A stretch of 64,000 bases of DNA from positions 1-64,000 of IMG/VR virus record IMGVR_UViG_3300037067_003400, one strand, 5' to 3'. This DNA comes from a virus. Taxonomy: Duplodnaviria; Caudoviricetes. The position numbers were made by a program, and so were the translations under genes. This document shows, piece after piece, positions 3,378-63,867 of this stretch (position 1 is its first letter; each line of letters opens with the position of its first letter). The notes beneath the pieces are model-generated. The model was given only the letters and a program-made list of their open reading frames with translations, was not told the origin of the DNA and ran no database searches.

Positions 3378-4892
3378 TTAGAAAGTCTCCCTTCTTAAGC
3401 TTGCCATAGACTGATCACTATATCTATCTTCAGCATTCCATTGACTGGAACGAACACCTATAGCTGGGGATATTCTATAAAGCATAATATTATTTTCAAG
3501 AATTTTTAACTGATCTTGCAGCCTCTTATAAAGTTTACCTAACTCAGTTAGAGCACCAGCCCCAACATCTACGGTAAAATCTCCCAGAGTCTTTTTAGTA
3601 TCTGCTCTATCTAATAGCTCAAAGTATTTCATTTGAACTATTCCAAATGCGGCTTTTACAGTTACGTACTGCTGCATATCATAAGTTAGAATATCTATAG
3701 CCGCCTGTACTTCTGCTAATGTAGACTCTTCATTAGTTAATCTTAATCTGTTTACATCAAGAGAAGCATTATGTATAAGTAGATTTATTAAATCATCGGT
3801 AAAGTCTGTGCTGAATCCTCCACATATTGCTCTTACTGAGATAGTGTTTACATAAAGAGGAGAGTATTGACTTGTAAAGTATGATTTAGTCACACCAGCC
3901 ATTGTATCTCCATCTGTATTTTTGATACCTGTTATATAAATATCATATCTTGTATTAGTAGCTATAGCATCTGTGGGAGTAAACTGAACTATTGATGAAC
4001 CTATTATTGTTAGAGTTCCATTTACGGTTCCACCAACTAAAGTTCCATTATCTAAAGGTTGGTATAATACATAGAAGTTATTTGCAGATACTGTAGCAGC
4101 ATCTACATTTTCTGAGAAAGTTGCCTGTATAACTGGAAAGATAGTTTGGTTAGTAGCTGCATCCTCTGGTAGTAAAGAAGTTATGCCAAATACCCCAGCG
4201 TGGGGTAGTTCTACACGTGTATCAACAGAAGATTGAATCTCTGCTCCATAGTAGAATGAAATATAATCAGACCATCCACCTATAGCAGCTGTTCCATTAG
4301 CTCTTACTCTCCAGAAGTATTGTGTTCCTTCTGTTAAAGATGCTGCTGCTGGGGAATATTCTGCCGACGTAGGGGTTCCAGTTAATATAATGGTGCCATC
4401 TGTAAATCTTGGGGAAACTGAATACTGTACTGTGTAGGATGTTGCGCTTGGAATAACAGACCAAGTAAATAAAGGTAGGAGTTCATAAGCTGATTCGTCT
4501 GGGGGTGATAATGAGGAAGGTGTAGCTATGCTACTTCCATTTACTGTAAACTGCCATGTATAAGTTCTACCTAAAGACCTTCCAGTAAATGATTCTATGT
4601 CAGATTGAGCCACAAATTGATATAACTCTCCAGCCGTAAGCGATGATGCTGGCTGCAGAGTTAAAATATTATTGCTGGTATCAAATGAATCGTATGTTAA
4701 ATCGTATGGCTTATCTGTTGATAGTTCTACTAAGGAAAATAAGTTATTAAGTGTCCCAGAATTAGAGAACTGAACAGTATCCATCTCTAAGGAGAATGTC
4801 ATCTCAATGTCAGGTAGATTCCCAACATCTGTATCCTCTAACGTAGGAGAAAAACTAAGTAAAACTGGGATACCTATTTGGCTATAGTCCAT
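3378..4892 (-). CDS. Ig-like (Big_5-type) and FN3 domain head/neck protein, possibly with a C-terminal head-tail adaptor region
   Basis: Two domains with I..TFS..MD/VD and L/F.P...L motifs; FN3-like L..GTQYFWRVRA; helical C-terminus with KKTLGDFTV; lies directly downstream of the major capsid gene. Confidence 0.65.
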   Translation of the reverse strand: MDYSQIGIPVLLSFSPTLEDTDVGNLPDIEMTFSLEMDTVQFSNSGTLNNLFSLVELSTDKPYDLTYDSFDTSNNILTLQPASSLTAGELYQFVAQSDIESFTGRSLGRTYTWQFTVNGSSIATPSSLSPPDESAYELLPLFTWSVIPSATSYTVQYSVSPRFTDGTIILTGTPTSAEYSPAAASLTEGTQYFWRVRANGTAAIGGWSDYISFYYGAEIQSSVDTRVELPHAGVFGITSLLPEDAATNQTIFPVIQATFSENVDAATVSANNFYVLYQPLDNGTLVGGTVNGTLTIIGSSIVQFTPTDAIATNTRYDIYITGIKNTDGDTMAGVTKSYFTSQYSPLYVNTISVRAICGGFSTDFTDDLINLLIHNASLDVNRLRLTNEESTLAEVQAAIDILTYDMQQYVTVKAAFGIVQMKYFELLDRADTKKTLGDFTVDVGAGALTELGKLYKRLQDQLKILENNIMLYRISPAIGVRSSQWNAEDRYSDQSMASLRRETF

Positions 4893-4926
4893 TGTTATCT
4901 TCCTTTGGTATTGATGTAACAGAGGG

Positions 4927-4951
4927 AGGGGTAGTTGTATTACCCCTCCTG
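4927..4951 (-). terminator. Stem-loop after the major capsid gene
   Basis: GGAGGGGTA/TACCCCTCC inverted repeat; the T-tract on the minus strand is weak. Confidence 0.5.
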
Positions 4952-4968
4952 TTTTATGTTGTTAGAAC

Positions 4969-6147
4969 TTAGAGAGATTTTGTTCTAACGGTATACATAG
5001 GAGCGAAGTTCTCAGCAATTCTTACATTCTTGAGAACAACAGCACTCCTTCCACCATTTGGAAGTCCAACGCCATACATCTCTTTAACCTTAAGGTATAG
5101 TATGTCTCTTGATGGATCATTGAACTGATCCGGTTGTAGTCCTTCTCTCTGAAGTAGAATTATACCGTTATTCCTATCACAAATATAAATACTTGTGCAG
5201 GGACCTGTATCGTCACCAGTAGCTGCTAAGTTAGTGAGGTGAGTGTTGGTAGAATATGCAACAAAAGGAGTAACATTGACATTCATGCTCCAAGGGAGAT
5301 TCTGTGCAATATTATCTGGTCCTATTGGCCCATAAGTCTGTCCAACTGGTCCATGTGTTAGCAACTGGAACTGTAGACGAGGGTCTTTCATAAAGATAGT
5401 CCATGCCATTGGGTGTAGAACTATATCTGTTGGAGCATATTCATTAGCTAAGAGCATTCCCATTGCATCAATGAGGTCATTAAATGCCAAGGTTCCGTTC
5501 TTATTTAAATCTGTATATGTTCCTGTTGTGTGGTAAGCAGTATCACTATTACTATTGTCGAAAGCTACGATTGCTGTATCTTCGAAGGCTTTGAAGATTT
5601 TCTCTTCTTTCCATCTCATCATAGCATAACCCATAGCTTCTACATGTAGAGCAAGCACGTCCCACATAGAGTTGTTAACTACTTCCTCAGCGATGGAACA
5701 CTTAAGACCAGATTTGGTAACCTTGATCTCAGTTGTTGCTTCACCGAAGGCTAAGTTCATCTCAGGATACTCTTGACCCTGAGCAATATCACCAGCACGT
5801 AGCGCACCAAGTGTTGGGAACTCTACCGATTTCATATCAGTATCAATAGTAACTGTTCTTGCTAAAGTCTTCTGACCAATCATCATTGGCTCCAATGGTC
5901 TCATTAGAACATCAGAGATAACTTTTGGTATAAGAACACTTGCATCAGCAGAGTACAATGTTTCCTTCATATCAAGCTTGAGAGCTGGTCTCTTACTTGC
6001 ATCAGTAACCATTACACTTTTGATAGTTTCTACTGCATCATTGATATACTTAAGATCAATAGATTTATCTGTTCCCGGAATGCTAATATTAACATTCTCA
6101 TCAACTGCTTTATCAAGCAGTTCCTTGAACAATTTTCCGTTGTTCAT
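4969..6147 (-). CDS. Major capsid protein (HK97 fold)
   Basis: LIPKVIS, E.P...L, K.G....I.EE, PTDIVLHP and D.......KE.YG.G patterns; 392 aa; synteny after protease, scaffold and decoration genes. Confidence 0.9.
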   Translation of the reverse strand: MNNGKLFKELLDKAVDENVNISIPGTDKSIDLKYINDAVETIKSVMVTDASKRPALKLDMKETLYSADASVLIPKVISDVLMRPLEPMMIGQKTLARTVTIDTDMKSVEFPTLGALRAGDIAQGQEYPEMNLAFGEATTEIKVTKSGLKCSIAEEVVNNSMWDVLALHVEAMGYAMMRWKEEKIFKAFEDTAIVAFDNSNSDTAYHTTGTYTDLNKNGTLAFNDLIDAMGMLLANEYAPTDIVLHPMAWTIFMKDPRLQFQLLTHGPVGQTYGPIGPDNIAQNLPWSMNVNVTPFVAYSTNTHLTNLAATGDDTGPCTSIYICDRNNGIILLQREGLQPDQFNDPSRDILYLKVKEMYGVGLPNGGRSAVVLKNVRIAENFAPMYTVRTKSL

Positions 6148-6248
6148 TTAATAAAGTCTCCTTACTTTTAGGGAGTTACCCCATTTGTATTATGTAAATC
6201 TAAATATCGGGGGTGTTTCCACCCCCTATTGCTTAGGGCTGATCCCTA

Positions 6249-7604
6249 TTAGTCAACCATTATCTTCATAATACCTACGGAACCCGCAATATCATACGCA
6301 GTTGGCGTACCAGTTGAAAGTCCACTATAGAAAGCGTCTGTAAGCATCATTTGACCACTATCGTATCTAACTCCAGTATCAATATCTTCATAGTAATATG
6401 ACATAGTGATATCGGAAGCTTCAATAGCAGTTCCATCAGCCTGTGCAACACCCCACAACTGGAGGATTCCAGTAATTGGGTTAACACTATAGTTCTTACC
6501 AATGGAGTAGTCTGTAAGATACATGTTTGAGAATCTTGGGAGACTTGTTACTCCAGATGCTGCTGTCCATGTACCAGTGTCTCCATCGAGGTACAGACAA
6601 CCATCGCCAATCTGAACTACTATCTCTTTATAAGCTGCAATTTGATGAGAAGGCCCACCGACTGCGATTTGGAATGCTCCATTTCCTAAGTCAGTAAGTG
6701 TATCTCCTGTGGTTACAGCAGCTGCTGTGCACCAACCAGGCATTTGCATTCTTGGGAGATCCCAAACGCCATAGTTGTCTCTAACCCACTTAAGCCATCC
6801 AGGTAGATCTGAGTCTATAATTTCAAGACCAAGAATTGTTCCAGCAATTTGCTGAATTCCCTGTCCCCAAGTGTAGGAATAAGACTTAACTCCAGATGTA
6901 GCAAATGTTGCTACCCATCCCTGAGCATTACTTTGCCATGCAACTGTTGCGCTTGTAGGTACTCCATCTGCAGTCCATCCAACAACGTTAGTTGGTGTAA
7001 ATGGAGAGAATGTCGCACTTGCTAATCTAATACCAGTAGAAGTTGTAGCTGTTCCAGTATGGACAGTATAACGAGATTTCTCTACCCACTTAACTACTTT
7101 ACCTTTATGACGAGGATCTATAGTACTTGTAGAACCTTTACCTGCATAAGCAGTAATTTTATCTCCCTGTGTAAGATCTCCATAAGCTCCATTACTGAAA
7201 CCAGTAGAACTTGCAACATAAGGAAGAGCAATTAGTTTTTGTTTGAATACAGCTGGAAGAGCTTGCATTCTATCTGCATACCACTGACTATGCATAGTGA
7301 ATCCAGCATAACCTATTGGGCTATATGTAACACCATCAGCCAGTGTGAGAATTGTTTTATGATCCTCTGAAGTACTTGTGTCTAAAGCTGCACCTGTTCC
7401 AGATGTAATAACTTTAGCTGCAACACCTAAGAGTCTTCCTTTTGGGATGACTATAAGATCAGTTGGGAACTTTGGATCCTGTCCCAAAATTGGGAGTGTT
7501 GGATCAAGTTTAAAGTTTTCGGCTGGAGCTTTAAGATCAGAAATTTCCAGCTCTGCAGACCAACGTCTTCCGGTTGGATTGTATCCTATCATACCTCTTG
7601 ACAT
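6249..7604 (-). CDS. Capsid decoration/cement-like structural protein
   Basis: Between scaffold and capsid genes; VIPKGRLLG motif; Gly/Thr-rich beta structure. Confidence 0.6.
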   Translation of the reverse strand: MSRGMIGYNPTGRRWSAELEISDLKAPAENFKLDPTLPILGQDPKFPTDLIVIPKGRLLGVAAKVITSGTGAALDTSTSEDHKTILTLADGVTYSPIGYAGFTMHSQWYADRMQALPAVFKQKLIALPYVASSTGFSNGAYGDLTQGDKITAYAGKGSTSTIDPRHKGKVVKWVEKSRYTVHTGTATTSTGIRLASATFSPFTPTNVVGWTADGVPTSATVAWQSNAQGWVATFATSGVKSYSYTWGQGIQQIAGTILGLEIIDSDLPGWLKWVRDNYGVWDLPRMQMPGWCTAAAVTTGDTLTDLGNGAFQIAVGGPSHQIAAYKEIVVQIGDGCLYLDGDTGTWTAASGVTSLPRFSNMYLTDYSIGKNYSVNPITGILQLWGVAQADGTAIEASDITMSYYYEDIDTGVRYDSGQMMLTDAFYSGLSTGTPTAYDIAGSVGIMKIMVD

Positions 7605-41775: not shown

Positions 41776-43311
41776 ATGGATATTCTTTCCATAGCTATTC
41801 CTGTTATCAGTAAGCTACAACAATACTTAGTATGCTTACTTAAGGGGAGTAATTCCCAGAAAGAGAGAGTTAAGTTGGACACTGAATCTAAATCTTCAGT
41901 AGTTCGAACAGGCTTTGAGGTTACAAGCCAGTTGCAAACAATGGGCGGAGTCTCATCATCCGAATTTGTTTGGAATAGAAAAAACCTAAGGAATACTATC
42001 TTTGACCCTTGTTTTATGGGCAAAGATGTATACATTGACCTTCTCAAAGTGTCGAATGGCACTGGTTTCCCAATGTATGAGGATGGTATTCCTCTTCAGC
42101 TAATACTTATTCCTTGGGATTTACGCAAGGACTTAAAGAAGAACTATAATGGAACCTATCTGCTTAGTGGGTTGTTAGCATCTGCTAATGAGCTTGCAGG
42201 TGAGGTTTCAAAGGCTAAAGTTTCTGGTGATATAAAGAGAGTTCAATCTTTAGTAACCAGAACTTGTTGCGCTTATGCTGAAGAACTATTGAGAACTCTC
42301 AATATAGATTTAGCACGACCAAGAAATAAATTATCTGGGAACCTTGTTGCCGTCCCAGATATAAGACACGATATCTTCTCGAGTTTAACTGCCTTTAAGA
42401 GAGGCTTGATTTCAGACTTGAGACCTGGTGAGATAGGTGTCTCTACTAAGGTTCTTAACAAAATTAATAACGGGAGAGACGTTCCAAAACGTATTGTTAA
42501 GAATGGTGACTATTTCATCACGAGTCGTTGGCCGTGCACTGATGTGCGTCCAATGAAGATTGTTGAACGGAATGAACATTCCTTTGTTGCTTACGTGTCA
42601 GCTGATTGGTTTACAACTACAGAGCACGAAGCTCCTATTCAACAGATGAAACTCTTCGAAGGAGACAACGACGGAGACACATTATTCTTCAACTTTGTTA
42701 CACATGTAGCAGAGGTGATGGATATATATGATAAGTTTATGGACGACGTAACCGTAGTTCCATTTACTCCAATGTCTTTAACTTATTTAGACCACGAGGT
42801 CTTAGATTGTAACGAGTTGCAGATAGCAACTGATAAGGCAGACCAGAAGAACTGGATTATGCCTTTAAGTGCAGCTATGTATGCTGGTTATGCTTTTATG
42901 GAGAACCGTGAACAACAAGGTCTCCCAGTCAATATGACTAAGCTTGAGTGGTGTGAAACTATGACTCAGGCTTTAGAGTTGTGCTTTGATAAAAAGCATA
43001 ATAATAATTCTAACCCTCGTCCTTTATATGGTATGCTCCAAGCAAAAGAGGGTTATACGTGGAATGCTGTTGTTAAGTTGCTGGAAGTCCAGAATCTTAA
43101 CATTGACATCCTTTACAAAATGCACGAAATGCTTGACGGTCAATCCCTAAGAGAAGCCGCAAGTGCTAATCTTCCGTTTAAAGTCGTGCACCAAATGCGT
43201 GGTGCTGATACTAAGAAACGCTTACAAACCATAGAAGCTTTGCTTCAGCAACCTGAACTTTGTAAGTGGTTTGTTTCTAACCTAGTTCCATCTTTACAAG
43301 GAGAGTGTTAA
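41776..43311 (+). CDS. Minimal RNA polymerase beta'-like (catalytic double-psi barrel) subunit
   Basis: FEGDNDGD ~ NADFDGD; SRWP ~ NRAP; LIPWDLR ~ VLPPDLR; SGNLVAVPD ~ SGRSVIVVG. Start codon uncertain. Confidence 0.8.
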   Translation: MDILSIAIPVISKLQQYLVCLLKGSNSQKERVKLDTESKSSVVRTGFEVTSQLQTMGGVSSSEFVWNRKNLRNTIFDPCFMGKDVYIDLLKVSNGTGFPMYEDGIPLQLILIPWDLRKDLKKNYNGTYLLSGLLASANELAGEVSKAKVSGDIKRVQSLVTRTCCAYAEELLRTLNIDLARPRNKLSGNLVAVPDIRHDIFSSLTAFKRGLISDLRPGEIGVSTKVLNKINNGRDVPKRIVKNGDYFITSRWPCTDVRPMKIVERNEHSFVAYVSADWFTTTEHEAPIQQMKLFEGDNDGDTLFFNFVTHVAEVMDIYDKFMDDVTVVPFTPMSLTYLDHEVLDCNELQIATDKADQKNWIMPLSAAMYAGYAFMENREQQGLPVNMTKLEWCETMTQALELCFDKKHNNNSNPRPLYGMLQAKEGYTWNAVVKLLEVQNLNIDILYKMHEMLDGQSLREAASANLPFKVVHQMRGADTKKRLQTIEALLQQPELCKWFVSNLVPSLQGEC

Positions 43312-43312
43312 T

Positions 43313-45271
43313 ATGGAATTTGCATATGAAATCGAGAAAGACCTATTTGAAATATATAAAATAGGTTTAGAGAAGTTCCTTGTTCTAAACTATAAGGGCA
43401 AGGAATATAAGACCAGAATTCCTATCACAAGTGATGGTAGGATAATACTGCCTTCAGGTTCTCAGCCTGTGTTTAGAAAGACTGTCGAAATCACATATGA
43501 TGATTTCAAGCCAGAAGTCAAGATGTATCAGAACATTGAGCAGTGGATTATAAAAGACTGCCAAGACCCTAAACTTCAGGGTTATATAGTTAGTATGCTG
43601 AAGCAGTCAGAGGGTGATGTCTCTGCTTGTGAAAACTTAGTTCGTGGTTTGCTTCTTAAATCATTGAATAAGTTTTATAAGTCTACTACGGTTTGGGAAG
43701 ACCCTGGTTCAGATTTTGAGTGTTTTGCTCAGAAGCTAACCTATGTCTTAGCAGATGGTGTGCCTCCTACTCGTAGAGGCGGATTCTTCCCTGATTCAGT
43801 AACTAAACACAGATTGACATTTCTCCGAGCTTTAGAAAATCAGGGAGTGTCTTCCTTGTGTGCAACTCAGCCCGGTGACCCGGGCACAACAGCTGATTGG
43901 GTTGATAAAGCAACTGGACTTCCTGTTTATATGGGAATTCAGCCGATGGCTTTAGAATGTCATCCTATGCGTTATGCTATTCAGAGAGGCTTAACGCATT
44001 TTGTTAAGTTACAAAACTCTGAAGCTCCATTTGTTAATGTAGAAGAGACATTAAAGTATCCGTCTCTTCAGACTGTGAATGCTAATGTCATTTGCGGAGA
44101 CTTAGGTCTTAACGATTCGGTGATTATTTCCCAGGACTTAGCAGATAGACTTACTGGTCTTGAGGATGAGGTTCACACCCATACTCTTGACGGTTTGATA
44201 ACTTGCAGAGGTGAAAGTGAGCCTTTAACTTTCCCAAGCGTCGTGAAGAGAAGTATGCTTCAGAAGACTGAAACTGCTTATGATGTCTTTGTGAGATATC
44301 GCAGACTATGGCTCTCCAAGTATGGGGATGAGAGCAAGGTTAGCCAAGTTCGTAAGAAACATCTTCTTAGTGTGATGAAAACGTGCCCGCTATTAAGTGT
44401 GGTATGTCCTGATGTTCAGGAACGTATCCACTTGAATATGTATAACTGTGAGTATGGAGAAAATAGCTCCGAGAGTTTTACTAAGTTTCGCAGATGGTTA
44501 CAACTTAATGACAAATATGCGACAGATATGTTGCCTTTTAACCATCTTAATCAGCCTGTGTCAAGAAGATTTCCCGGTGTGGGAATTGATAGACTTATAG
44601 CTGAATCTAATTCCGGTAGAAGTGTTCTTTATAAAGAATTTCACGGAATTGACAAGAATAAATGCCGAGTCGGTGCTAAGTTACAGACCGACGCAGACTT
44701 AGCAAAAGGTGTTTGTAACATCTTTGAGAATGAGCGTATGCCATTTATCAAGAGAGCTGATGGCACTATGGTTAGAGCAGATTTAGTCGTTGATATGGCT
44801 AAATCGACCAAGAAACACGGTTCTCTTCGTTTTGCTCATCTAACTATGGCTTTATATGCTATAGGACAAGCTAAAGGCGGTATAACCGTAAAGGTTTCTG
44901 AGCCGTGGAGTGATGAGAAGATTGTTGCAACTGGTAAGAGATTGGGTATCTATGATGATGAGTCTCTTACTTGTGAGATGTGGAATGATACACAGACTCA
45001 CGTTCTTGGGAAATTTCCTGCCGGCGTTATCCGTATAGGTAGACATCGTCAAGACCCTGATATTCAGGGCGGTGTCGTTGGTGAGTTAGGCAAGAAAGAG
45101 TTAACTGCAAGAAACGTTCTTAAAGAATCTGGAGTTAGAGATGGTTTTATTGATACTAACGTTCAGATGGCTTTTGGTTTCATAGAGTCAGCTAAAGAAC
45201 TCAGGCGTGTAACTCCCAGTGCAAAGAAGAAAGTTAATGCACTTGAGAGAGTTTTAGTGTTCAATAACTAA
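43313..45271 (+). CDS. Minimal RNA polymerase beta-like subunit
   Basis: NDSVIISQDL ~ EDAILISERL; GAKL...KGVC....RMPF...DG...DLVV ~ GDKL...KGVV....DMPF..DG..VDIV; SGVRDG.....MAFG ~ GGQRFG.....EAYG; SEAPFV ~ AEAPIV. Confidence 0.85.
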   Translation: MEFAYEIEKDLFEIYKIGLEKFLVLNYKGKEYKTRIPITSDGRIILPSGSQPVFRKTVEITYDDFKPEVKMYQNIEQWIIKDCQDPKLQGYIVSMLKQSEGDVSACENLVRGLLLKSLNKFYKSTTVWEDPGSDFECFAQKLTYVLADGVPPTRRGGFFPDSVTKHRLTFLRALENQGVSSLCATQPGDPGTTADWVDKATGLPVYMGIQPMALECHPMRYAIQRGLTHFVKLQNSEAPFVNVEETLKYPSLQTVNANVICGDLGLNDSVIISQDLADRLTGLEDEVHTHTLDGLITCRGESEPLTFPSVVKRSMLQKTETAYDVFVRYRRLWLSKYGDESKVSQVRKKHLLSVMKTCPLLSVVCPDVQERIHLNMYNCEYGENSSESFTKFRRWLQLNDKYATDMLPFNHLNQPVSRRFPGVGIDRLIAESNSGRSVLYKEFHGIDKNKCRVGAKLQTDADLAKGVCNIFENERMPFIKRADGTMVRADLVVDMAKSTKKHGSLRFAHLTMALYAIGQAKGGITVKVSEPWSDEKIVATGKRLGIYDDESLTCEMWNDTQTHVLGKFPAGVIRIGRHRQDPDIQGGVVGELGKKELTARNVLKESGVRDGFIDTNVQMAFGFIESAKELRRVTPSAKKKVNALERVLVFNN

Positions 45272-45340
45272 GGTACGGCCTTCGGCCTACCTACTACGAC
45301 TTACTTTACCACACTTTATATCTCTCGAGTTGATGGGATT

Positions 45341-45377
45341 GGGAGCCTGCCCTTAGCGGGGTGGGCTCCCCCTTTTT
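45341..45377 (+). terminator. Intrinsic terminator after the RNAP genes
   Basis: GGGAGCCTGCCC/GGGTGGGCTCCC stem (with G-U pairs) followed by CCTTTTT. Confidence 0.75.
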
Positions 45378-45415
45378 GGCTTCTGAAAGCCATATCACAA
45401 TTCCCGTCAGAAAAG

Positions 45416-46678
45416 GTGAGAGCTATGCGAGTTAGGAATGCTAAAGGTGAAGAATACGAAGTCATTCGTTACACAGGTAACAATGACAAAGAGGTTTTAA
45501 GTTTCATGGCTGAATGTGCTAAGCCACATTGGAAAGACCCGTTAGAGGAAGGTTCTTGGTTACTTAAGAGCCATTTTAGTCCTAAAGCAGGTGTTGTGCA
45601 TCCTACTGTCATGCGTATTAAAAGTGACGTTTTTGACAAGAATTTCACACTAATTGATATGGATATGTCCGTGTTTTCTAAAGGTTGTAACAATTGCGGC
45701 ACAAGTGTGGGCTGTGATGACAAGATGGTATGCAAAGGCTGTTATGATGACCTTAGCCATCTGTTCCATAGTATGTGTGAGCAAAATAGTAGCCTTATCA
45801 AGAGAAATAAAGACCTTGAAGGTAGCCATACATTTGTTGAGGGTAGACTTACTACTCTTCAAGCTAAGTATGCTGAACTTTGTGAAGACTATAGAGAATT
45901 AACACGTATAGAGAATTCTCAACGTGTTGAACTTTCTAAGCTTCATGATAAAATACCACCTATTACAAATAATGGTGTTCCTCCCATTGGTGAGGTTTAC
46001 AACCATCTTATAGAGCTTACTGAAAGCTTAGTGACTCATAAGGCGCATCGTGTTAGTTATAATGGCACTACAGCTGTAAAAGAAGCTGATGTTTTAGCTA
46101 TCTACGTTACTGAAGAAAATGAAGAGATAGCTAATCACATTATTCATAGGGATACCGATTGTGAGCAAGATATTAAGCCAGGGTTCTGGTTTATAATTGA
46201 GGGAGACAAGTGGGCTTCTACAAATAATTCTACTTACTTCCATCAGTTCTACCATCTCCTCACACCGGACTCAAAAGGTTTCCCAGAACCAGGTTTACAG
46301 TTAGATAAAGTAGTAGAGTCTTTCAAGCCTGAAGTCTTAAAGGTTGAAGACCTTGTATTAGAACCTTCGGTTCCAAAGGTCAAGAGCTCTATGACTATCT
46401 CTGGTGAGACTATGAGAGATATATACGGCGGTGTTGTAGTAGCTACTGTATATAAGAAGACTAGAAATGGAACCTTAGATTACGATAAGCCTTTTAGGGC
46501 TATTCGAGTTATGGGTCTTAACTATGAAAAGGCTTGTGAGATAGTAAAGAAGTGCTGTCCTACTTGCCATGTAAAACCAGCCAAGTTCTCTTGGTTTGTG
46601 TGGGATGAGAATGGATGGTTCCAAACTATCTTTACACACAAAGACTTTCATGGTCGTTATCACATAGAGGATAACTAA
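45416..46678 (+). CDS. Hypothetical protein with three diverged copies of one small domain, a CxxC/CxxC cluster and a coiled coil
   Basis: Repeated [VA]I.[YV]...N...W[LF]...F...[FY] pattern. Confidence 0.6.
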   Translation: MRAMRVRNAKGEEYEVIRYTGNNDKEVLSFMAECAKPHWKDPLEEGSWLLKSHFSPKAGVVHPTVMRIKSDVFDKNFTLIDMDMSVFSKGCNNCGTSVGCDDKMVCKGCYDDLSHLFHSMCEQNSSLIKRNKDLEGSHTFVEGRLTTLQAKYAELCEDYRELTRIENSQRVELSKLHDKIPPITNNGVPPIGEVYNHLIELTESLVTHKAHRVSYNGTTAVKEADVLAIYVTEENEEIANHIIHRDTDCEQDIKPGFWFIIEGDKWASTNNSTYFHQFYHLLTPDSKGFPEPGLQLDKVVESFKPEVLKVEDLVLEPSVPKVKSSMTISGETMRDIYGGVVVATVYKKTRNGTLDYDKPFRAIRVMGLNYEKACEIVKKCCPTCHVKPAKFSWFVWDENGWFQTIFTHKDFHGRYHIEDN

Positions 46679-58056: not shown

Positions 58057-58872
58057 CTTTGCAATTATTGTTAACAAATTTTGTTAAGGATGGTGTATGT
58101 TATGAGAGAACATAAAGGTTTTTGGTGGCATGTGTTAAGAGCACAAGCTATGCTATTTGGTTATGGTGCATTGATAGTAGGTGGATTTATTGCCTTAGTG
58201 CTATTTGTTACTTGGGCTTCTACGTTACATGGTATAGCTGCTCTTATATTCTGGGTATCAGTACTTCTACTAATAGGTTTAGTAGCTGGTATTATAAGCT
58301 ACATAATGCAAGATTTGTAGGGTTATAATGATGGGTAGATTAAGTGACCCAGATGTTTTAATATTGATTGCTGTAGTAGTAATAGCTATTGTTATCTTTG
58401 GCTTCTTTGCTATGTATGAGCGAGTGAATACTGAGTATATAGTAGTTATAAGGCATACTCCTAATGGGAATGTTTCTACTACATATTCTGGGTATAAACA
58501 TTCTGATATTTCTTGGGAATATAATGTCCTGTCTTTAGATTACGGCAGGGATACTTGTTATCATGAGATAAAGGGTTGTGATGTTAAGGTATACAATGAA
58601 GGTTGTGGATATCTAAAGAGAAAGTAAGGAGCATGATATGGAAAGAATAATCTGTAAAGAATGTGGTACTTGCCATGAAGAAGAGAATGGTAGCAAAGAA
58701 GTTACTGAACAGTCTGGTTTTCTTTGTGGTAGTTGCTACGAAAAACTAAGAACTATTAAGCAAGCTCAAGATACAGTTGCTTATAAAACGAGAAGCTAAT
58801 ATTTTTAGGTTATAGTGTGATGGCTTATGCCTATATCACTAATGGGTGTTACTGTTTAAAGTTTTTTTATTT

Positions 58873-58999
58873 GGGTGGCTGGACTGGTATTCTAGTGTTA
58901 GACTAGTGGGAAACTTAGGTGAGCTAATCATACTCGGATTTTTGCCCAAGGAGCTGTCCCTAAGTACTGTAGGCTCGCAATATACAGGGAACCCCACCC
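58873..58999 (+). ncRNA. About 127-nt multi-stem structured RNA candidate
   Basis: GGGTGG/CCACCC closing stem followed by a T run; internal CTAGT/ACTAG, ACTTAGG/CCTAAGT and CTGTA/TACAG stems. Confidence 0.5.
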
Positions 59000-59027
59000 T
59001 TTTACACCCATCTATAGGAGGTTAATT

Positions 59028-59489
59028 ATGAAATCGTTTATTGGTATTGCATTAGTTTTTATTGTAGTATTTGCTGTAATTAGTGGCATCTTCTCTGTAG
59101 TAGGGTGGCTTACTAAAGCATCCAAGGTAGTAGAGAAAGAGGTTGACCCAGCGAATCTACAGAGGAAATATGAGTGGTTTAAAGACCAGTCTGCTGCCCT
59201 TACCCAATTAAATGCAGACATCAAGGTATACTATACTAATGTGTCTGAGATGAAGTCTGACTACAAGGGTATTCATAGAAGTAAGTGGACTAGAGATGAT
59301 AGGAACCAGTATGCACAGTGGAGAGCTGAGTGTGCTGGTGTAGTAGCTAAGTATAATGAGCTGGCTGCTGAATACAATAGCCAGATGGCTAAGTGGAATT
59401 GGAAGTTTTGTAATGTGGGTAGTCTTCCCAAGGGAGCCAGTGAGGTTTTACCTAAAGCTTATGCTCCTTATAAGACAGATTTGGAGTAA
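59028..59489 (+). CDS. Membrane-anchored helical protein
   Basis: N-terminal TM helix; YEWFK...YN..AAEYN. Confidence 0.7.
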   Translation: MKSFIGIALVFIVVFAVISGIFSVVGWLTKASKVVEKEVDPANLQRKYEWFKDQSAALTQLNADIKVYYTNVSEMKSDYKGIHRSKWTRDDRNQYAQWRAECAGVVAKYNELAAEYNSQMAKWNWKFCNVGSLPKGASEVLPKAYAPYKTDLE

Positions 59490-59492
59490 CCT

Positions 59493-60041
59493 GTGAAAAT
59501 TCTATTAAGTTTTTGTGTAGTATTAATGATACTACTTAGTGGTTGTGAGTCTCAACCTGTAGAGACTGCTATAGATTCTCCTAAGAGAGTTCAGGTAAAA
59601 GTAAAGACAGATTCCGATGGGTTAACTGTAGAGCAGAAGAATATATCCAGGAGACTTACAGAAGATAATAAACCTGGGGCTGTTAAACATTTATACCTTA
59701 TTTCACCGTATTCTGGACAAGCTATAATGTATTCTACTGTCAATGGTAAAGTTACTTCCTCTGAGAAGAGGCTTACTCCTAAGACTGTTGGATGCACTGG
59801 TGGAGAATATGTATATAGGGAGAATAGGGGTATTGCGGTTGCACTACCTAATGAAGGCACTAAAAATACCCCAGAGGTATTAGGTGATGATGGTACTTAT
59901 GGAGATAGCTACCAGTATATTTACTGGTGGGATACTAAAGGAAGATATCATCAAGTTATTCCTGGGAATTGTATAGTCCTGATTACAGATAAGCCGCTGG
60001 TAACTAATAAGGTTACTATTGATTTGAGGAATGTGCAATAA
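59493..60041 (+). CDS. Lipoprotein
   Basis: Signal peptide with LSGC lipobox; HLYLIS, GKVTS, DDGTYG motifs. Confidence 0.7.
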   Translation: MKILLSFCVVLMILLSGCESQPVETAIDSPKRVQVKVKTDSDGLTVEQKNISRRLTEDNKPGAVKHLYLISPYSGQAIMYSTVNGKVTSSEKRLTPKTVGCTGGEYVYRENRGIAVALPNEGTKNTPEVLGDDGTYGDSYQYIYWWDTKGRYHQVIPGNCIVLITDKPLVTNKVTIDLRNVQ

Positions 60042-60096
60042 AACAAGAAGAGATAGATGAACTCTTTACTATAGAAATAGAATAGTTGGTGCTAAT

Positions 60097-61077
60097 ATGG
60101 AAATCATAGAAAGAATACCAGTTCCTACAGGGGACATTTTAATAGTCGAAGGTGAACATGGTAAGTTAGAATGTTTATCACTGGGTGACTATGGCAAAGA
60201 TGTTAATGTACACTCTGATGCTCTTGGTTTATCAAGAGATATAGAAAAAGTAGAGCATACTAAACTGCTTCCTTTAGAACACAAGTGGGTAGTAACTATA
60301 TCTACTCAGTATGGGTGTTCTATGAAGTGTAAGATATGTGATGTTCCTAAAGTAGGTCCCGGAGTAAATGCTACCTGTGATGATCTTGTGAACCAAGTAA
60401 GAGTGGCTATGAGTATTCACCCAGAGGTAGTATACTCCAAGAGACTTAATGTACATTATGCCAGAATGGGTGAGGCTACTTGGAATCCAGAAGTTCTTGA
60501 TGCGACAGTTGTTTTACATAGTCATCTTCCTAAGGAGTTTCTTTTTCATCCTGTGGTATCTACTATGATGCCTAAGACTAATAAAAATTTGTATGAGTTT
60601 TTATCTCAGTGGATCTTTTTAAAGAACCAAGTTCTAAATGGTGAGGCTGGGCTACAGTTATCTATAAACTCTACTGATGAGGAAGAGCGTGTACACTTGT
60701 TTGGTGGCAGTGCTCTCTCATTAGATAAAGTTGGGAAGCTGATGTCTCGATTTGATTCTAGACCCCTGATAGGTAGGAAGTATACACTCAACTTTGCAGT
60801 TGCTGGATGGGAAATATCCCCAGAGATTTTATTAAGATACTTTAATCCTGAGAGGTACATTATTAAGTTGACTCCTATGCATAAGACTATAACTGCATTG
60901 GAGAATGATATTAAAACATCAGGAGACTATACTACTTTCCATCCTTATAAAGAAGTTGAGGAAGAACTAACAGCTGCTGGGTATGATGTACTTGTGTTCA
61001 TTGCTTCCAAAGAGGAAGACATGGGAAGAATTACCTGTGGAAATGCTATACTTTCTGGAACGAGACCAGAATTGTAG
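60097..61077 (+). CDS. RlmN/Cfr-like radical SAM enzyme
   Basis: STQYGCSMKCKIC (CxxxCxxC); RMGE ~ MGMGEP; LQLSINS ~ LAISLHA; ITCGN ~ AACGQ. Confidence 0.85.
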   Translation: MEIIERIPVPTGDILIVEGEHGKLECLSLGDYGKDVNVHSDALGLSRDIEKVEHTKLLPLEHKWVVTISTQYGCSMKCKICDVPKVGPGVNATCDDLVNQVRVAMSIHPEVVYSKRLNVHYARMGEATWNPEVLDATVVLHSHLPKEFLFHPVVSTMMPKTNKNLYEFLSQWIFLKNQVLNGEAGLQLSINSTDEEERVHLFGGSALSLDKVGKLMSRFDSRPLIGRKYTLNFAVAGWEISPEILLRYFNPERYIIKLTPMHKTITALENDIKTSGDYTTFHPYKEVEEELTAAGYDVLVFIASKEEDMGRITCGNAILSGTRPEL

Positions 61078-61093
61078 ATAATAGGAGAGTCTT

Positions 61094-63867
61094 ATGGATA
61101 GGGCTATTATAGTTGATAATGAGAATAGATGCTCTTACTATTATCCTTATGAGGTAACTCTTGAGGATGGGGAGCTTGAGTTAGCTATCAGGTTCGCCAA
61201 TCCTATGATGCTGCTCTATAAGATCACGAAGAGTGGGACTACTTATATAAAGTTTGATTCTAATAAGGAATTCTATGATAGAGTAGCAAATAATATAACT
61301 TCTGGGAAAGCTAAACTTGAAAATGATGGAGGGCTTACTGGTTATAAATACCCTATATACTCTATAGTTACTCGTGAAGAGAGTGAGTTTATAGAGCAGG
61401 TTACTATATCAGTGTGTGCTCTACCCTCTTATAGGGATGGAGAACCAGACAGATACAGAATCTTCATAGACCAAGGAGACTACCATATGGGGTGCCATAC
61501 TTACCATCAGAAGTCCAAGATAGGTAAGAGACTAAAGGCTCTCTATGATGCTATGGTTAAGAAGCATGCTATCCAGGAGGTAGTCCCTGTTGAGAGGAAA
61601 GGTCTTGGAGAAGTGTTGTTTGGGGAGGTGAGCTGATGTATGGAGAACCCTTAAATCCAGGAGCTATTGTCGCTATGACTTGGATATCTAATATATGTTT
61701 CTATTTATGCGTGCCTTTAGTTGCCTTGGCTATCTTAGACAAGTATGAGCATGAGTTTCTATGGGTATCAGTAGCTGGTCTTGCATTTATGTGGATCAAC
61801 TTTGAGGGTGGGTATGTTGCAAAGACAGGGGATTTCTCTGTGATACTTACACAATTCTTATTCCTGTTGGGGTGCTCTATCCCTATAGGTATCCATTACG
61901 TTATTATGCGCCTACTTAGAGTCAGGAGACCTTACCATGGGTTTTAGTGAATATAATTATGCTTTTTATCTAGGGTATGCTCTTTTAGTATTATCTATAG
62001 TTATGATGTGGGCTGCAGTGGTAAGTAAGATTGAGTTGCTTGGAGTTTATGCTCTAGGTGTAGTGTTTCTTCCAGCTACAGCTTTCCTAGGATTATATTA
62101 TGAGTATGGAGACAGGTCCATACTGATAAATCATGTATCCTTCCTAGTAGGGTGTGGTATCACTGGATATATTGCTCTTGTTATATGGCTATTGTGTATA
62201 GGTAAGGAGAGTTATCATGAGTATTAGTTATCTATTCTGGGGCTTTGTTATAAGCTCCTCTATTTATGTGGTATATCTTATTGCTCCACACGTGCGTCGC
62301 TTTAAGAAGCGAGATTCTTGGGATTTGTAGGTATTGCAATGAGAGTTGATAAACAAATTGATAAGAAGCTAAGAGAGATAAACTCGAGATGTAAACCTAA
62401 TCAAGCAAAGAAGATAGTTAAACTTGCTAAGAAAAGTTCAAGCTCCAAGCGAGAACTAATAACTAAGCTTTGGTTCTATGATATAATGAGGCATACTAAA
62501 TGAAAAGTATTGTATTAGTAATTGTTATCTTGGTGGTATCTTCTTCTTGTTTTGCTGGTGTATTAGAGGAAGCAGATAAGTTATCCTCTGAGAATAAGAG
62601 TATACAGGCTCAACTTGATGATTTACTCCACAGGGGGTTCTTTGGATATAGTAACAATGAGGATGTAGCTAAGGAACTTACTCTGAGGTATAAGTATAAC
62701 AGGGAACGTTATGAGGAGTTGAGGAAAACCAAGGAGGGTTCATCTCTATACCCTATGCCTATTGTTCAAGCTGCTTTCGGGGATGATGACATGCCTCGTA
62801 CCAAGTTAGAGATTGCTAAGATTAAGAAAGATGAAGAGAAAGTTGCTAAAGAGTTTGATAGGATAGCTTGGGATGTAATGGTAGTTATATGTGCTATTGT
62901 TATCTTTACTCTATTCTTTATGGGATGTAGATATTTAATAATTGCTGCTTGTGATAGCGTTGCTAATGCAGCAGCTAAAGAGAAGAAGCCTAATAAGTTT
63001 GATTATTGAGGTAGTTATGAAAGAATTTGATGTGATAGTTAAAGCAACAATGGAGTTTAGGTTTACATGTAAAGCTAAATCAAAGAAAGCTATTCGTGAT
63101 ATGGATAATGATGATGATAGTTTACTTGATGGAGCAAGTTATATGTATACTGAATCTAATGGGTATGACTGGAAACATGCTGACATAATAGAAAAAGGCA
63201 AAGACTAATGAAAAAGTTTTATATTAAGTACAAAAGAACTATTCAAATTGTAGCTTTTGTTTTGATTATGATAGTAACTATATTTATAGCTTGGTTTATG
63301 CACCATATAGGTTTGAGGTATTAGCATGTATTATATCATAGGTGTTGCTATTCTTATAGTAGGTGTGGTAGTATTAGATAGGGGTTATCCTAAGGTTTCC
63401 CTTGCATGCGTAGTATTATTATTGGGATGGACTATCTTTTGCCACTTCTATTCTCCTGGTAAGGTTACTCGTGTAACAGATACTACTTACCTGGGTGAAA
63501 TTGCCCTCCAAAAATCTGTTAAGTTACGAACTGGGTGGTGGGTAGATGTAATGGGAATCGAAAAATACCCCAGAGTTGAGTACTACCTTCGTGTTGATGG
63601 TGAAAACATAAGAGTAGATAAAGAAAGCTATGATTTTCTGAAAGATTACTATACTAAGTAGGTAATATAATGAGTGATAAAGAATATGTTAAAGCTCTTG
63701 AAGAAGAGAATACCAGACTTAGAGCCAAGTTAAAGGCTAAACAACAGGCTAACTGTAGTCATGATGATTATAGTCTTTATTGTAGTAGCTATGAAAATAG
63801 AGCCCCTTATACCACATATAAGTGTAACAAATGCGGGTATATATGGGATGAGAGCATTAGTTGCTAA
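61094..63867 (+). CDS. Small hypothetical and membrane proteins, including paralogous membrane pair 61636..61947 and 61937..62227
   Basis: GDFSVILTQFLFLLGC resembles GDRSILINHVSFLVGC; co-oriented, coupled ORFs. Confidence 0.6.

Follow-up and report, generated by a model that had tools for sequence, protein, structure and literature searches.

The gene at positions 60097 to 61077 of the window (by which we mean the whole stretch of DNA analysed, 64 kb from the start of a jumbo-phage record that is 210,951 bp long and an estimated 98% complete) encodes a member of a family that is distinct from RlmN and Cfr, stands to them as a sister group and is carried mostly by phages. In the sequences compared, the lack of a counterpart of RlmN Cys118 is a trait of this family rather than an accident of this phage, and conservation points to no substitute cysteine. 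Tentatively, and with somewhat less than even confidence, we propose that the product (P0001) would be a turnover enzyme whose substrate is not 23S rRNA but a small anionic metabolite from within or alongside the salvage of pyridine nucleotides (NAD+).

The gene and its product

The open reading frame is uninterrupted and, based on the list of open reading frames and its translation, encodes a radical SAM protein of 326 aa; translation starts at an ATG with a weak GGTG upstream. The features of the gene are the following:

60097..61077, plus strand: complete RlmN/Cfr-like radical SAM gene (P0001), stop codon counted in the end coordinate (ORF list, phrog_24834, RlmN/Cfr profile match, AlphaFold2 model, Foldseek)
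60097..60276, plus strand: beta-strand region at the N terminus (aa 1-60), including the GDYGK segment specific to the family (DSSP, conservation)
60295..60297, plus strand: codon of Thr67, which takes the place of RlmN Cys118 seven residues ahead of the first cluster cysteine (HMMER/profile alignment)
60316..60342, plus strand: CSMKCKIC-D, comprising the three cysteines of the [4Fe-4S] motif (Cys74, Cys78 and Cys81) and then Asp82, which is specific to the family and nearly invariant (partial Pfam Radical_SAM match, conservation)
60463..60486, plus strand: RMGEATWN (aa 123-130), aligned to the MGMGEP block of RlmN/Cfr (alignments, conservation)
61036..61038, plus strand: codon of Cys314 in RITCGNAI, equivalent of RlmN Cys355 and of the cysteine of Cfr ACGQL (profile alignment, conservation)

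Codons 60295-60342 encode TISTQYGCSMKCKICD and codons 61027-61050 encode RITCGNAI; around the cluster motif, the sequence of P0001 is VVTISTQYGCSMKCKICD. We take RMGEATWN to be the SAM-binding motif of the 'GGE' type. The protein has six cysteines, at positions 26, 74, 78, 81, 94 and 314, and it is acidic, with a pI of 5.7 and a net charge of -10. The AlphaFold2 model of P0001, built from a 64-sequence alignment, has a mean pLDDT of 95.1 and a pTM of 0.93; DSSP assigns strands to residues 3-9, 12-19 and 22-29 of this model, and the N-terminal 60 residues are mostly beta strands.

Relationship to RlmN and Cfr

To our knowledge, no class A radical SAM methylase other than RlmN and Cfr has been characterised, and the mechanism of these two, which employs a pair of cysteines, is the one given in textbooks. 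P0001 scores far below the curated cut-offs of both families: the NCBIfam models of RlmN (TIGR00048, cut-off 290 bits) and Cfr (TIGR04432, cut-off 550 bits) give about 31 bits, over residues 50-140 only, and the Pfam Radical_SAM model gives a partial match of 17 bits against a cut-off of 29.5. Using P0001 as a single phmmer query against the PDB, Cfr and E. coli RlmN were retrieved at E-values from 8e-4 to 9e-3. A profile made from 16 diverse family members aligned over nearly its full length with RlmN 6FZ6 (E 3.8e-19) and Cfr 9P0P (E 1.9e-15), and matched the E. coli RlmN chains at E 3e-15 to 9e-15. Apart from RlmN and Cfr, no PDB chain fell below E 1e-4 in this profile search, which up to E 10 listed just RlmN, Cfr and generic radical SAM chains and no further named family. 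Foldseek comparison of the model also placed RlmN chains at the top (E about 1e-10, TM 0.60-0.67, with about 15% identity in the structural alignment) and Cfr second (E 2.8e-6, TM 0.56), followed by the many other radical SAM folds that match from E 4e-5 upward. Based on these rankings, RlmN and Cfr are the closest characterised relatives of P0001, though distant ones. Since Cys74, Cys78 and Cys81 are invariant, RMGE(A/P) is conserved and the fold matches, P0001 is best explained as a functional radical SAM enzyme, its activity being putative.

RlmN (PDB 3RFA, 4PL1, 5HR6/5HR7 and 6FZ6) is a dual-specificity C2-methyl synthase of 23S rRNA A2503 and tRNA A37. P0001 shares with it the core fold, the order of the motifs, the pattern S-x-Q-x-G-C-x3-C-x2-C, the MGEP block and the C-terminal Cys-Gly loop. 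Unlike RlmN, the family lacks Cys118 throughout, with Thr in its place in P0001 and most members, has Asp after the third cluster cysteine and carries about 35 extra conserved residues, which include the GDYGK segment, between the N-terminal strands and strand beta1. RlmN also has a helical, RNA-binding N-terminal accessory domain, formed by roughly its first 60 residues, and P0001 has no domain of this type. The profile alignment onto RlmN begins at RlmN residue 86-104, and it revealed no equivalent of the first 85-100 or so residues of RlmN in P0001 or its family; in line with this, P0001 is shorter (326 aa) than the RlmN chains in the PDB (359-404 aa) and Cfr (349 aa). With Cfr (PDB 9P0P), the C8-methyltransferase of 23S rRNA A2503, the family shares the class A radical SAM methylase fold and a cysteine of the ACGQL type that aligns with Cys314. 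The differences from Cfr are the same as those from RlmN, with 31 bits scored against the 550-bit cut-off, and nothing in the data of this analysis links the P0001 gene to antibiotic resistance.

Cysteine pattern and other family traits

In RlmN, Cys355 forms a covalent intermediate with the RNA, which Cys118 resolves. The first-pass annotation of this DNA had placed Thr67 at the position of Cys118 and Cys314 (in ITCGN) at that of the methyl carrier Cys355, and our alignments show that it was correct on both points. In E. coli RlmN (chains 4PL1 and 5HR6), the segment that HMMER pairs with VVTISTQYGCSMKCKIC is TLAVSSQVGCALECKFC. The Thr of 'VVTIS' is thereby paired with an Ala in these two chains, because, according to the Foldseek titles, both entries are of the C118A mutant; in RlmN 6FZ6, its partner is the Cys of 'CVSCQVGC'. 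In the family profile, TCGN aligns with 'ACGQL' of RlmN (6FZ6) and Cfr (9P0P). Thus, on HMMER and profile alignments together, Thr67 corresponds to Cys118 and Cys314 to Cys355.

The loss of the first of these cysteines extends across the clade. Among the 372 family sequences with the cluster motif, the residue seven positions before the cluster is never Cys: it is Thr in 313, Ile in 15, Asn in 11 and Met in 8, with Val, Ala, Leu, Ser and others in the remainder. Cellular, operon-encoded members lack the Cys118 equivalent as well. In 20 close homologues (63-67% identity), Thr67 is invariant, and Cys74, Cys78, Cys81 and Cys314 are the only invariant cysteines, while Cys26 is often replaced by Met and Cys94 is variable; the total cysteine count is only four in two of the 119 close homologues. 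Neither Cys26 nor Cys94 can accordingly be retained as a replacement resolving residue. The suggestion that the cysteine of KLECLS (Cys26) might stand in for Cys118 falls for this reason, as no non-cluster cysteine other than Cys314 is conserved.

A C-G motif occupies the place of Cys314 in 314 of 324 family sequences. The cysteine itself is replaced in some of the proteins in which the radical SAM domain is fused to an ECF membrane domain and an MTA/SAH nucleosidase (ECF-rSAM-MTAN fusions, described below), where TNGN, TSGH or APGQ is found, so that it may be dispensable in that clade. These Cys314-less fusions suggest, at the sequence level, that one obligatory methyl-carrier mechanism does not hold across the whole family.

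Other positions set the family apart. In a set of 64 diverse relatives, at least 90% keep Asp82, at which position RlmN and Cfr have Ala or Ser, and Arg123, Met124, Gly125, Glu126 and Asn130 are nearly invariant in the same set. Additionally, Gly30, Asp31, Tyr32, Gly33 and Lys34 of the GDYGK segment are invariant among close homologues.

Size and distribution of the family

P0001 matches the profile of phrog_24834, a family of unknown function, with an E-value of 1.6e-109, residues 1-324 being aligned to positions 1-327 of the profile, whose length is 336. In a 90%-clustered database, P0001 has more than 6,600 matching proteins, and most of the best 120 of these matches are 62-68% identical to it; at 50% clustering, the family has 529 representatives. 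The Atlas clusters of the family are 73-92% viral, and one of them consists of 288-aa proteins that align to residues 2-289 of P0001. Among cultured phages, relatives are found in Bacteroides phage Versailles (52%) and, more distantly, in the crAss-like Kehishuvirus and several jumbo phages. We confirmed 467 family loci in IMG/VR and recorded 538 in species-representative genomes; the surroundings of many genome loci look phage-like, and at several of these loci the gene copy is identical to one found on a viral contig of IMG/VR. In a FastTree phylogeny built from 154 sequences, a mainly gut-bacterial clade is separated from a mainly viral clade that contains P0001.

One public source calls many homologues '23S rRNA (adenine2503-C2)-methyltransferase', an automatic label that is unsupported whether the enzyme acts on a metabolite or on tRNA. 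Full-text literature searches found no published description of the phrog_24834 family or of DUF5662, a domain encoded in several of the neighbourhoods described below.

Domain fusions among relatives

In Bacillota, family members occur as fusion proteins of about 810-940 aa that combine a QueT-type ECF substrate-binding membrane domain, the family radical SAM domain and a nucleosidase of the MtnN type. Their radical SAM domain is 31-35% identical to P0001 and keeps all the motifs, and their C-terminal domain exceeds the equivalog cut-off of the MTA/SAH nucleosidase MtnN (228 bits against 169). Radical SAM enzymes are inhibited by 5'-deoxyadenosine and by SAH, and MtnN clears both compounds. 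The joining of this nucleosidase to an ECF importer domain thus points to an enzyme that is catalytic and acts on an imported small molecule. The genes around the ECF-rSAM-MTAN fusion genes had no common theme. In further members, the fusion partner is an isochorismatase-type amidase or a pyridine-nucleotide-disulphide reductase. Those with an isochorismatase partner fall in a distant clade, 27-28% identical, and stand in a non-NAD context.

Gene neighbourhoods of relatives

Eight genome loci, from gut Alphaproteobacteria and two MAGs (one of Firmicutes, the other unclassified), encode a radical SAM protein that is 43-45% identical to P0001 over the full length, in the gene order NAPRTase, nicotinamidase-like isochorismatase (PncA), radical SAM, NadE, DUF5662 and NrtR-type Nudix regulator. 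Similar sets are found in phages. Locus L116 has the order radical SAM, PncA, DUF5662, NAPRTase, NadD-like nucleotidyltransferase and NadE; in L111, PncA lies two genes from the radical SAM gene; and in L004/5 the latter stands amid genes for Nudix/NrtR, isochorismatase, NAPRTase, PARG and MazG. In L119/120, the order is NAPRTase, a 310-aa gene, one further gene and radical SAM, the product of the 310-aa gene having a weak Pribosyltran match (E 6.5e-4) under the Pfam cut-off. On the tree of 154 sequences, adjacency to NAD genes requires at least five changes and is present in both major clades. Across 50 carrier phage records, any NAPRTase was found in five (adjacent to the radical SAM gene in three) and any isochorismatase in four (adjacent in two), and NAD-salvage genes were absent from 45.

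These clusters resemble NARP1, NARP2 and NARP3, phage gene sets that rebuild NAD+ after its defence-driven depletion, in that the radical SAM gene of the relatives lies inside sets of NAPRTase, PncA, NadD-like and NadE genes; the clusters described here follow the nicotinate (Preiss-Handler) route. Within the accessible part of their descriptions, NARP1-3 are presented without a radical SAM component. The phage under study differs from the NARP carriers in having no NAD genes.

RNA-repair genes recur a few kb from the radical SAM gene in about 20% of the carrier phages. RtcB was identified in 10 of the 50 records, mostly 4-12 kb away, and genes for a CCA-adding enzyme and RlaP are present at several family loci. 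In locus L019, a metallophosphoesterase, the radical SAM protein, RlaP and the CCA-adding enzyme are encoded by directly adjoining genes, and in L002 the distance from the radical SAM gene to those for an RNA ligase and PNKP is 1-2 kb. NAD and RNA-repair sets are both typical of the accessory or counter-defence regions of phages, so adjacency to either may reflect the organisation of such islands rather than a shared pathway. In five gut Alphaproteobacteria, we also observed a cassette of a PDT-fold gene, the radical SAM gene and a serine recombinase gene.

The gene in its own phage

We tested ten ORFs around the gene, from 41.7 to 63 kb, and these are orphans, except for a weak match to a DNA-methyltransferase PHROG and a weak match to an Rz-like spanin PHROG; one further neighbouring ORF has a sub-threshold match to Pfam DUF948. 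It had been proposed that the enzyme might act on nearby phage RNAs, and this finds no support within the window: there is no tRNA gene or Rfam match within the 64-kb window, and the nine tRNA genes of the phage are located at 85-156 kb of the genome, that is, 24-96 kb downstream of the radical SAM gene. Searches of this phage by tblastn with proteins from the related loci revealed no NAD-salvage or RNA-repair genes, and no TGT/DpdA, QueC or QueD was found in it. As no partner genes were detected in this phage, the P0001 gene would work without phage-encoded partners. A promoter scan of the window gave results level with those of shuffled sequence. Terminator-like sites numbered four, against 1.6 expected.

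Proposed function and alternative explanations

Besides the takeover by another cysteine rejected above, the first-pass annotation had offered two outcomes of the missing residue, permanent attachment of the enzyme to its target or different chemistry on a non-RNA substrate, and it is the last that we favour, on the ECF and amidase fusions and the repeated NAD clusters. The substrate would be a small, probably anionic metabolite, such as a pyridine or purine base, nucleoside or nucleotide. The [4Fe-4S] cluster would cleave SAM to the 5'-deoxyadenosyl radical, and Cys314 could then act in one of two ways: as a methyl carrier in the style of RlmN, with the adduct resolved by another group (Asp82 being a candidate) or through the acidity of the substrate itself, or, if the reaction is not a methylation, as the donor of a hydrogen atom. 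Because the P0001 gene stands alone among orphan genes, the substrate of the enzyme would be a metabolite present in all host cells, and such an activity might plausibly aid the phage when host defences drain NAD+. The motifs shared across the family, the acidity of P0001 and the late start of its alignment onto RlmN (residue 86-104) are consistent with this proposal, together with the fusions and the repeated adjacency to NAD genes. Several observations weigh against it. The closest characterised relatives all act on RNA. NAD-salvage genes are missing from this phage and from most carrier records, in which RNA-repair genes, such as RtcB, are the commoner companions, and the adjacency may be a matter of island organisation. 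Additionally, the isochorismatase-fused clade is distant and has no NAD context, and the importer domain is nearest to QueT, which is described as importing queuosine precursors, not niacin.

The main alternative is an RNA substrate, which we regard as unlikely. P0001 would then be an adenine C-methyl synthase of tRNA (or rRNA), with a Cys314-CH2-RNA adduct resolved without a second cysteine, and would form part of a tRNA repair or protection toolkit directed to host or phage tRNAs. RlmN and Cfr are by far the nearest proteins in sequence and fold, and the mobile C-terminal loop of the methyl-carrier cysteine and the SAM motifs are kept. The frequency of RtcB, the recurrence of CCA-adding enzyme, RlaP, metallophosphoesterase, RNA ligase and PNKP genes nearby (as direct flanks in L019) and the nine tRNA genes of the phage all fit such a function, and a fused MTA/SAH nucleosidase would equally serve an enzyme with both SAH and 5'-deoxyadenosine among its products. 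However, the protein is acidic, has no equivalent of the N-terminal residues of RlmN and scores far under the RlmN/Cfr cut-offs. RNA-repair genes mostly lie several kb away rather than adjacent, and this phage has no tRNA, Rfam RNA or RNA-repair gene near the radical SAM gene. Membrane importer and amidase fusions and operons with NrtR-type regulators of NAD metabolism are likewise hard to reconcile with an RNA substrate; unlike RlmN, which has a housekeeping context, the family sits in NAD-salvage clusters, importer fusions and phage accessory regions. Permanent attachment would make P0001 a single-turnover 'suicide' enzyme that, without a resolving residue, becomes cross-linked through Cys314 to a nucleic-acid target and so blocks or marks host RNA. 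This idea derives from established enzymology: C118 mutants of RlmN, which lack the residue that is Thr in P0001, accumulate the protein-RNA cross-link, and by their Foldseek titles PDB entries 5HR6 and 5HR7 are such complexes. It seems very improbable for P0001, since the cysteine is absent in all 372 members examined, chromosomal operon-encoded and transporter-fused bacterial enzymes included, and some fusions lack even the Cys314 equivalent. The very strong conservation, which includes the family-specific Asp82, fits an alternative catalytic solution, and the nucleosidase fusions suggest repeated turnover rather than self-trapping.

The importer domain raises a further alternative, the salvage of 7-deazapurines (queuosine precursors), in which P0001 would process an imported deazaguanine base as a functional analogue of QueL. 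The radical SAM queuine lyase QueL acts in queuine salvage (PMC11130926; 10.1101/2023.12.05.570228) and provides a precedent for radical SAM chemistry in this pathway. The likeness to the queK-qrtT-queL operon of Clostridioides difficile, which combines a radical SAM enzyme, an imported base and an ECF substrate-binding component, makes the fusions superficially similar; two of the four fusion proteins have an importer domain that passes the Pfam QueT cut-off of 33.7 bits, with 39.8 and 37 bits, and 83% of one Atlas cluster carries a QueT annotation. Membership in the QueL family, which the fusions to QueT and PNP_UDP_1 domains had raised, was nonetheless dropped: the fused 'phosphorylase' is a nucleosidase of the MtnN type and not a queuosine hydrolase, no preQ1 riboswitch was found upstream of the ECF-rSAM-MTAN fusion genes, TGT gave no match above the cut-off in the 50 carrier phage records, and QueL did not appear in the PDB profile search up to E 10. 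As no sequence relationship to QueL was detected and this phage lacks TGT/DpdA, QueC and QueD, we retain at most a functional analogy, which we consider improbable.

Implications

The metabolite reading can be taken further, to a proposal that we put forward as doubtful: the family would represent an undescribed radical SAM step in pyridine-nucleotide metabolism, carried out by a one-cysteine mechanism of the RlmN type and spread by phages against defences that deplete NAD+ and perhaps cleave tRNA. Such a step would be, for example, a C-methylation or the cleavage of a C-X bond on nicotinamide, nicotinate or an adenine nucleotide.

The family adds to RlmN and Cfr a sister group of thousands of mostly viral sequences, which keeps about 65% identity across very different phages and retains one of the two RlmN cysteines. 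If the substrate is a tRNA, the family would hold a second way of resolving the covalent intermediate. If it is a metabolite, the chemistry of RlmN and Cfr would extend beyond RNA, and the family may add a missing step to the NAD+ counter-defence of phages.

Genomic surroundings in the source phage

The gene for the radical SAM protein P0001 lies in the second of two long runs of co-directional ORFs, in neither of which did the tested ORFs give any other Pfam or PHROG match beyond weak ones; among the ORFs tested, P0001 was the only strong family match in this part of the window. By eye, several small ORFs in these runs resemble membrane proteins. Outside the window, ARAGORN identified nine tRNA genes in the phage, one of which has a four-base anticodon (tgaa) and received no amino-acid assignment.

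Window 41776-46678 and 58081-63661: co-directional ORF runs
Full phage record (G000:C1) 84957-85033: tRNA gene, anticodon tgaa

Relatives lacking the C-terminal cysteine

In some fusions of a QueT-type ECF importer domain, a radical SAM domain and an MTA/SAH nucleosidase, the TCGN motif is replaced by TNGN, TSGH or APGQ, so that the C-terminal Cys is also gone; the remaining radical SAM domain appears intact.

L010:4041-6527, L060:4077-6500 and protein P0233: fusions without the C-terminal Cys

Bacterial and MAG loci

In gut Alphaproteobacteria, the radical SAM gene forms part of a three-gene cassette that may be a mobile unit. The copies on MAG contigs L083, L085 and L063, labelled Patescibacteria, Dehalococcoidia and Leyella, are identical or nearly identical to those on IMG/VR viral contigs L142, L136 and L164; these MAG contigs are probably binned phage contigs or prophages. 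The distant radical SAM-isochorismatase fusion P0220 is followed by GDT1, a tocopherol-cyclase-like gene, a GMC oxidoreductase and PAP2, a context unrelated to NAD.

L026, L044, L047, L055 and L056, ~4180-6520 in each: short prephenate-dehydratase-fold gene, radical SAM gene, serine recombinase
L166:59-7693 (GCA_016207685.1): co-directional gene row headed by P0220

NAD-salvage clusters

Phage contig L116 carries a full nicotinamide-to-NAD (Preiss-Handler) set, which differs from the phage NAD+ reconstitution pathways NARP1-3 as these are described in published abstracts.

L116:7980-12953 (IMGVR_UViG_3300006217_000018): radical SAM, PncA, DUF5662, NAPRTase, NadD-like, NadE
L116:9619-10161: DUF5662 (PF18907) gene
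L034:4864-5361, + strand: DUF5662 gene

DUF5662, whose Atlas automatic name is 'catalase', is a mostly viral family of ~165-180 aa proteins, also present in L035, L042, L046, L050 and L062. It accompanies the radical SAM gene in the NAD-salvage clusters and is their second uncharacterised component beside it.
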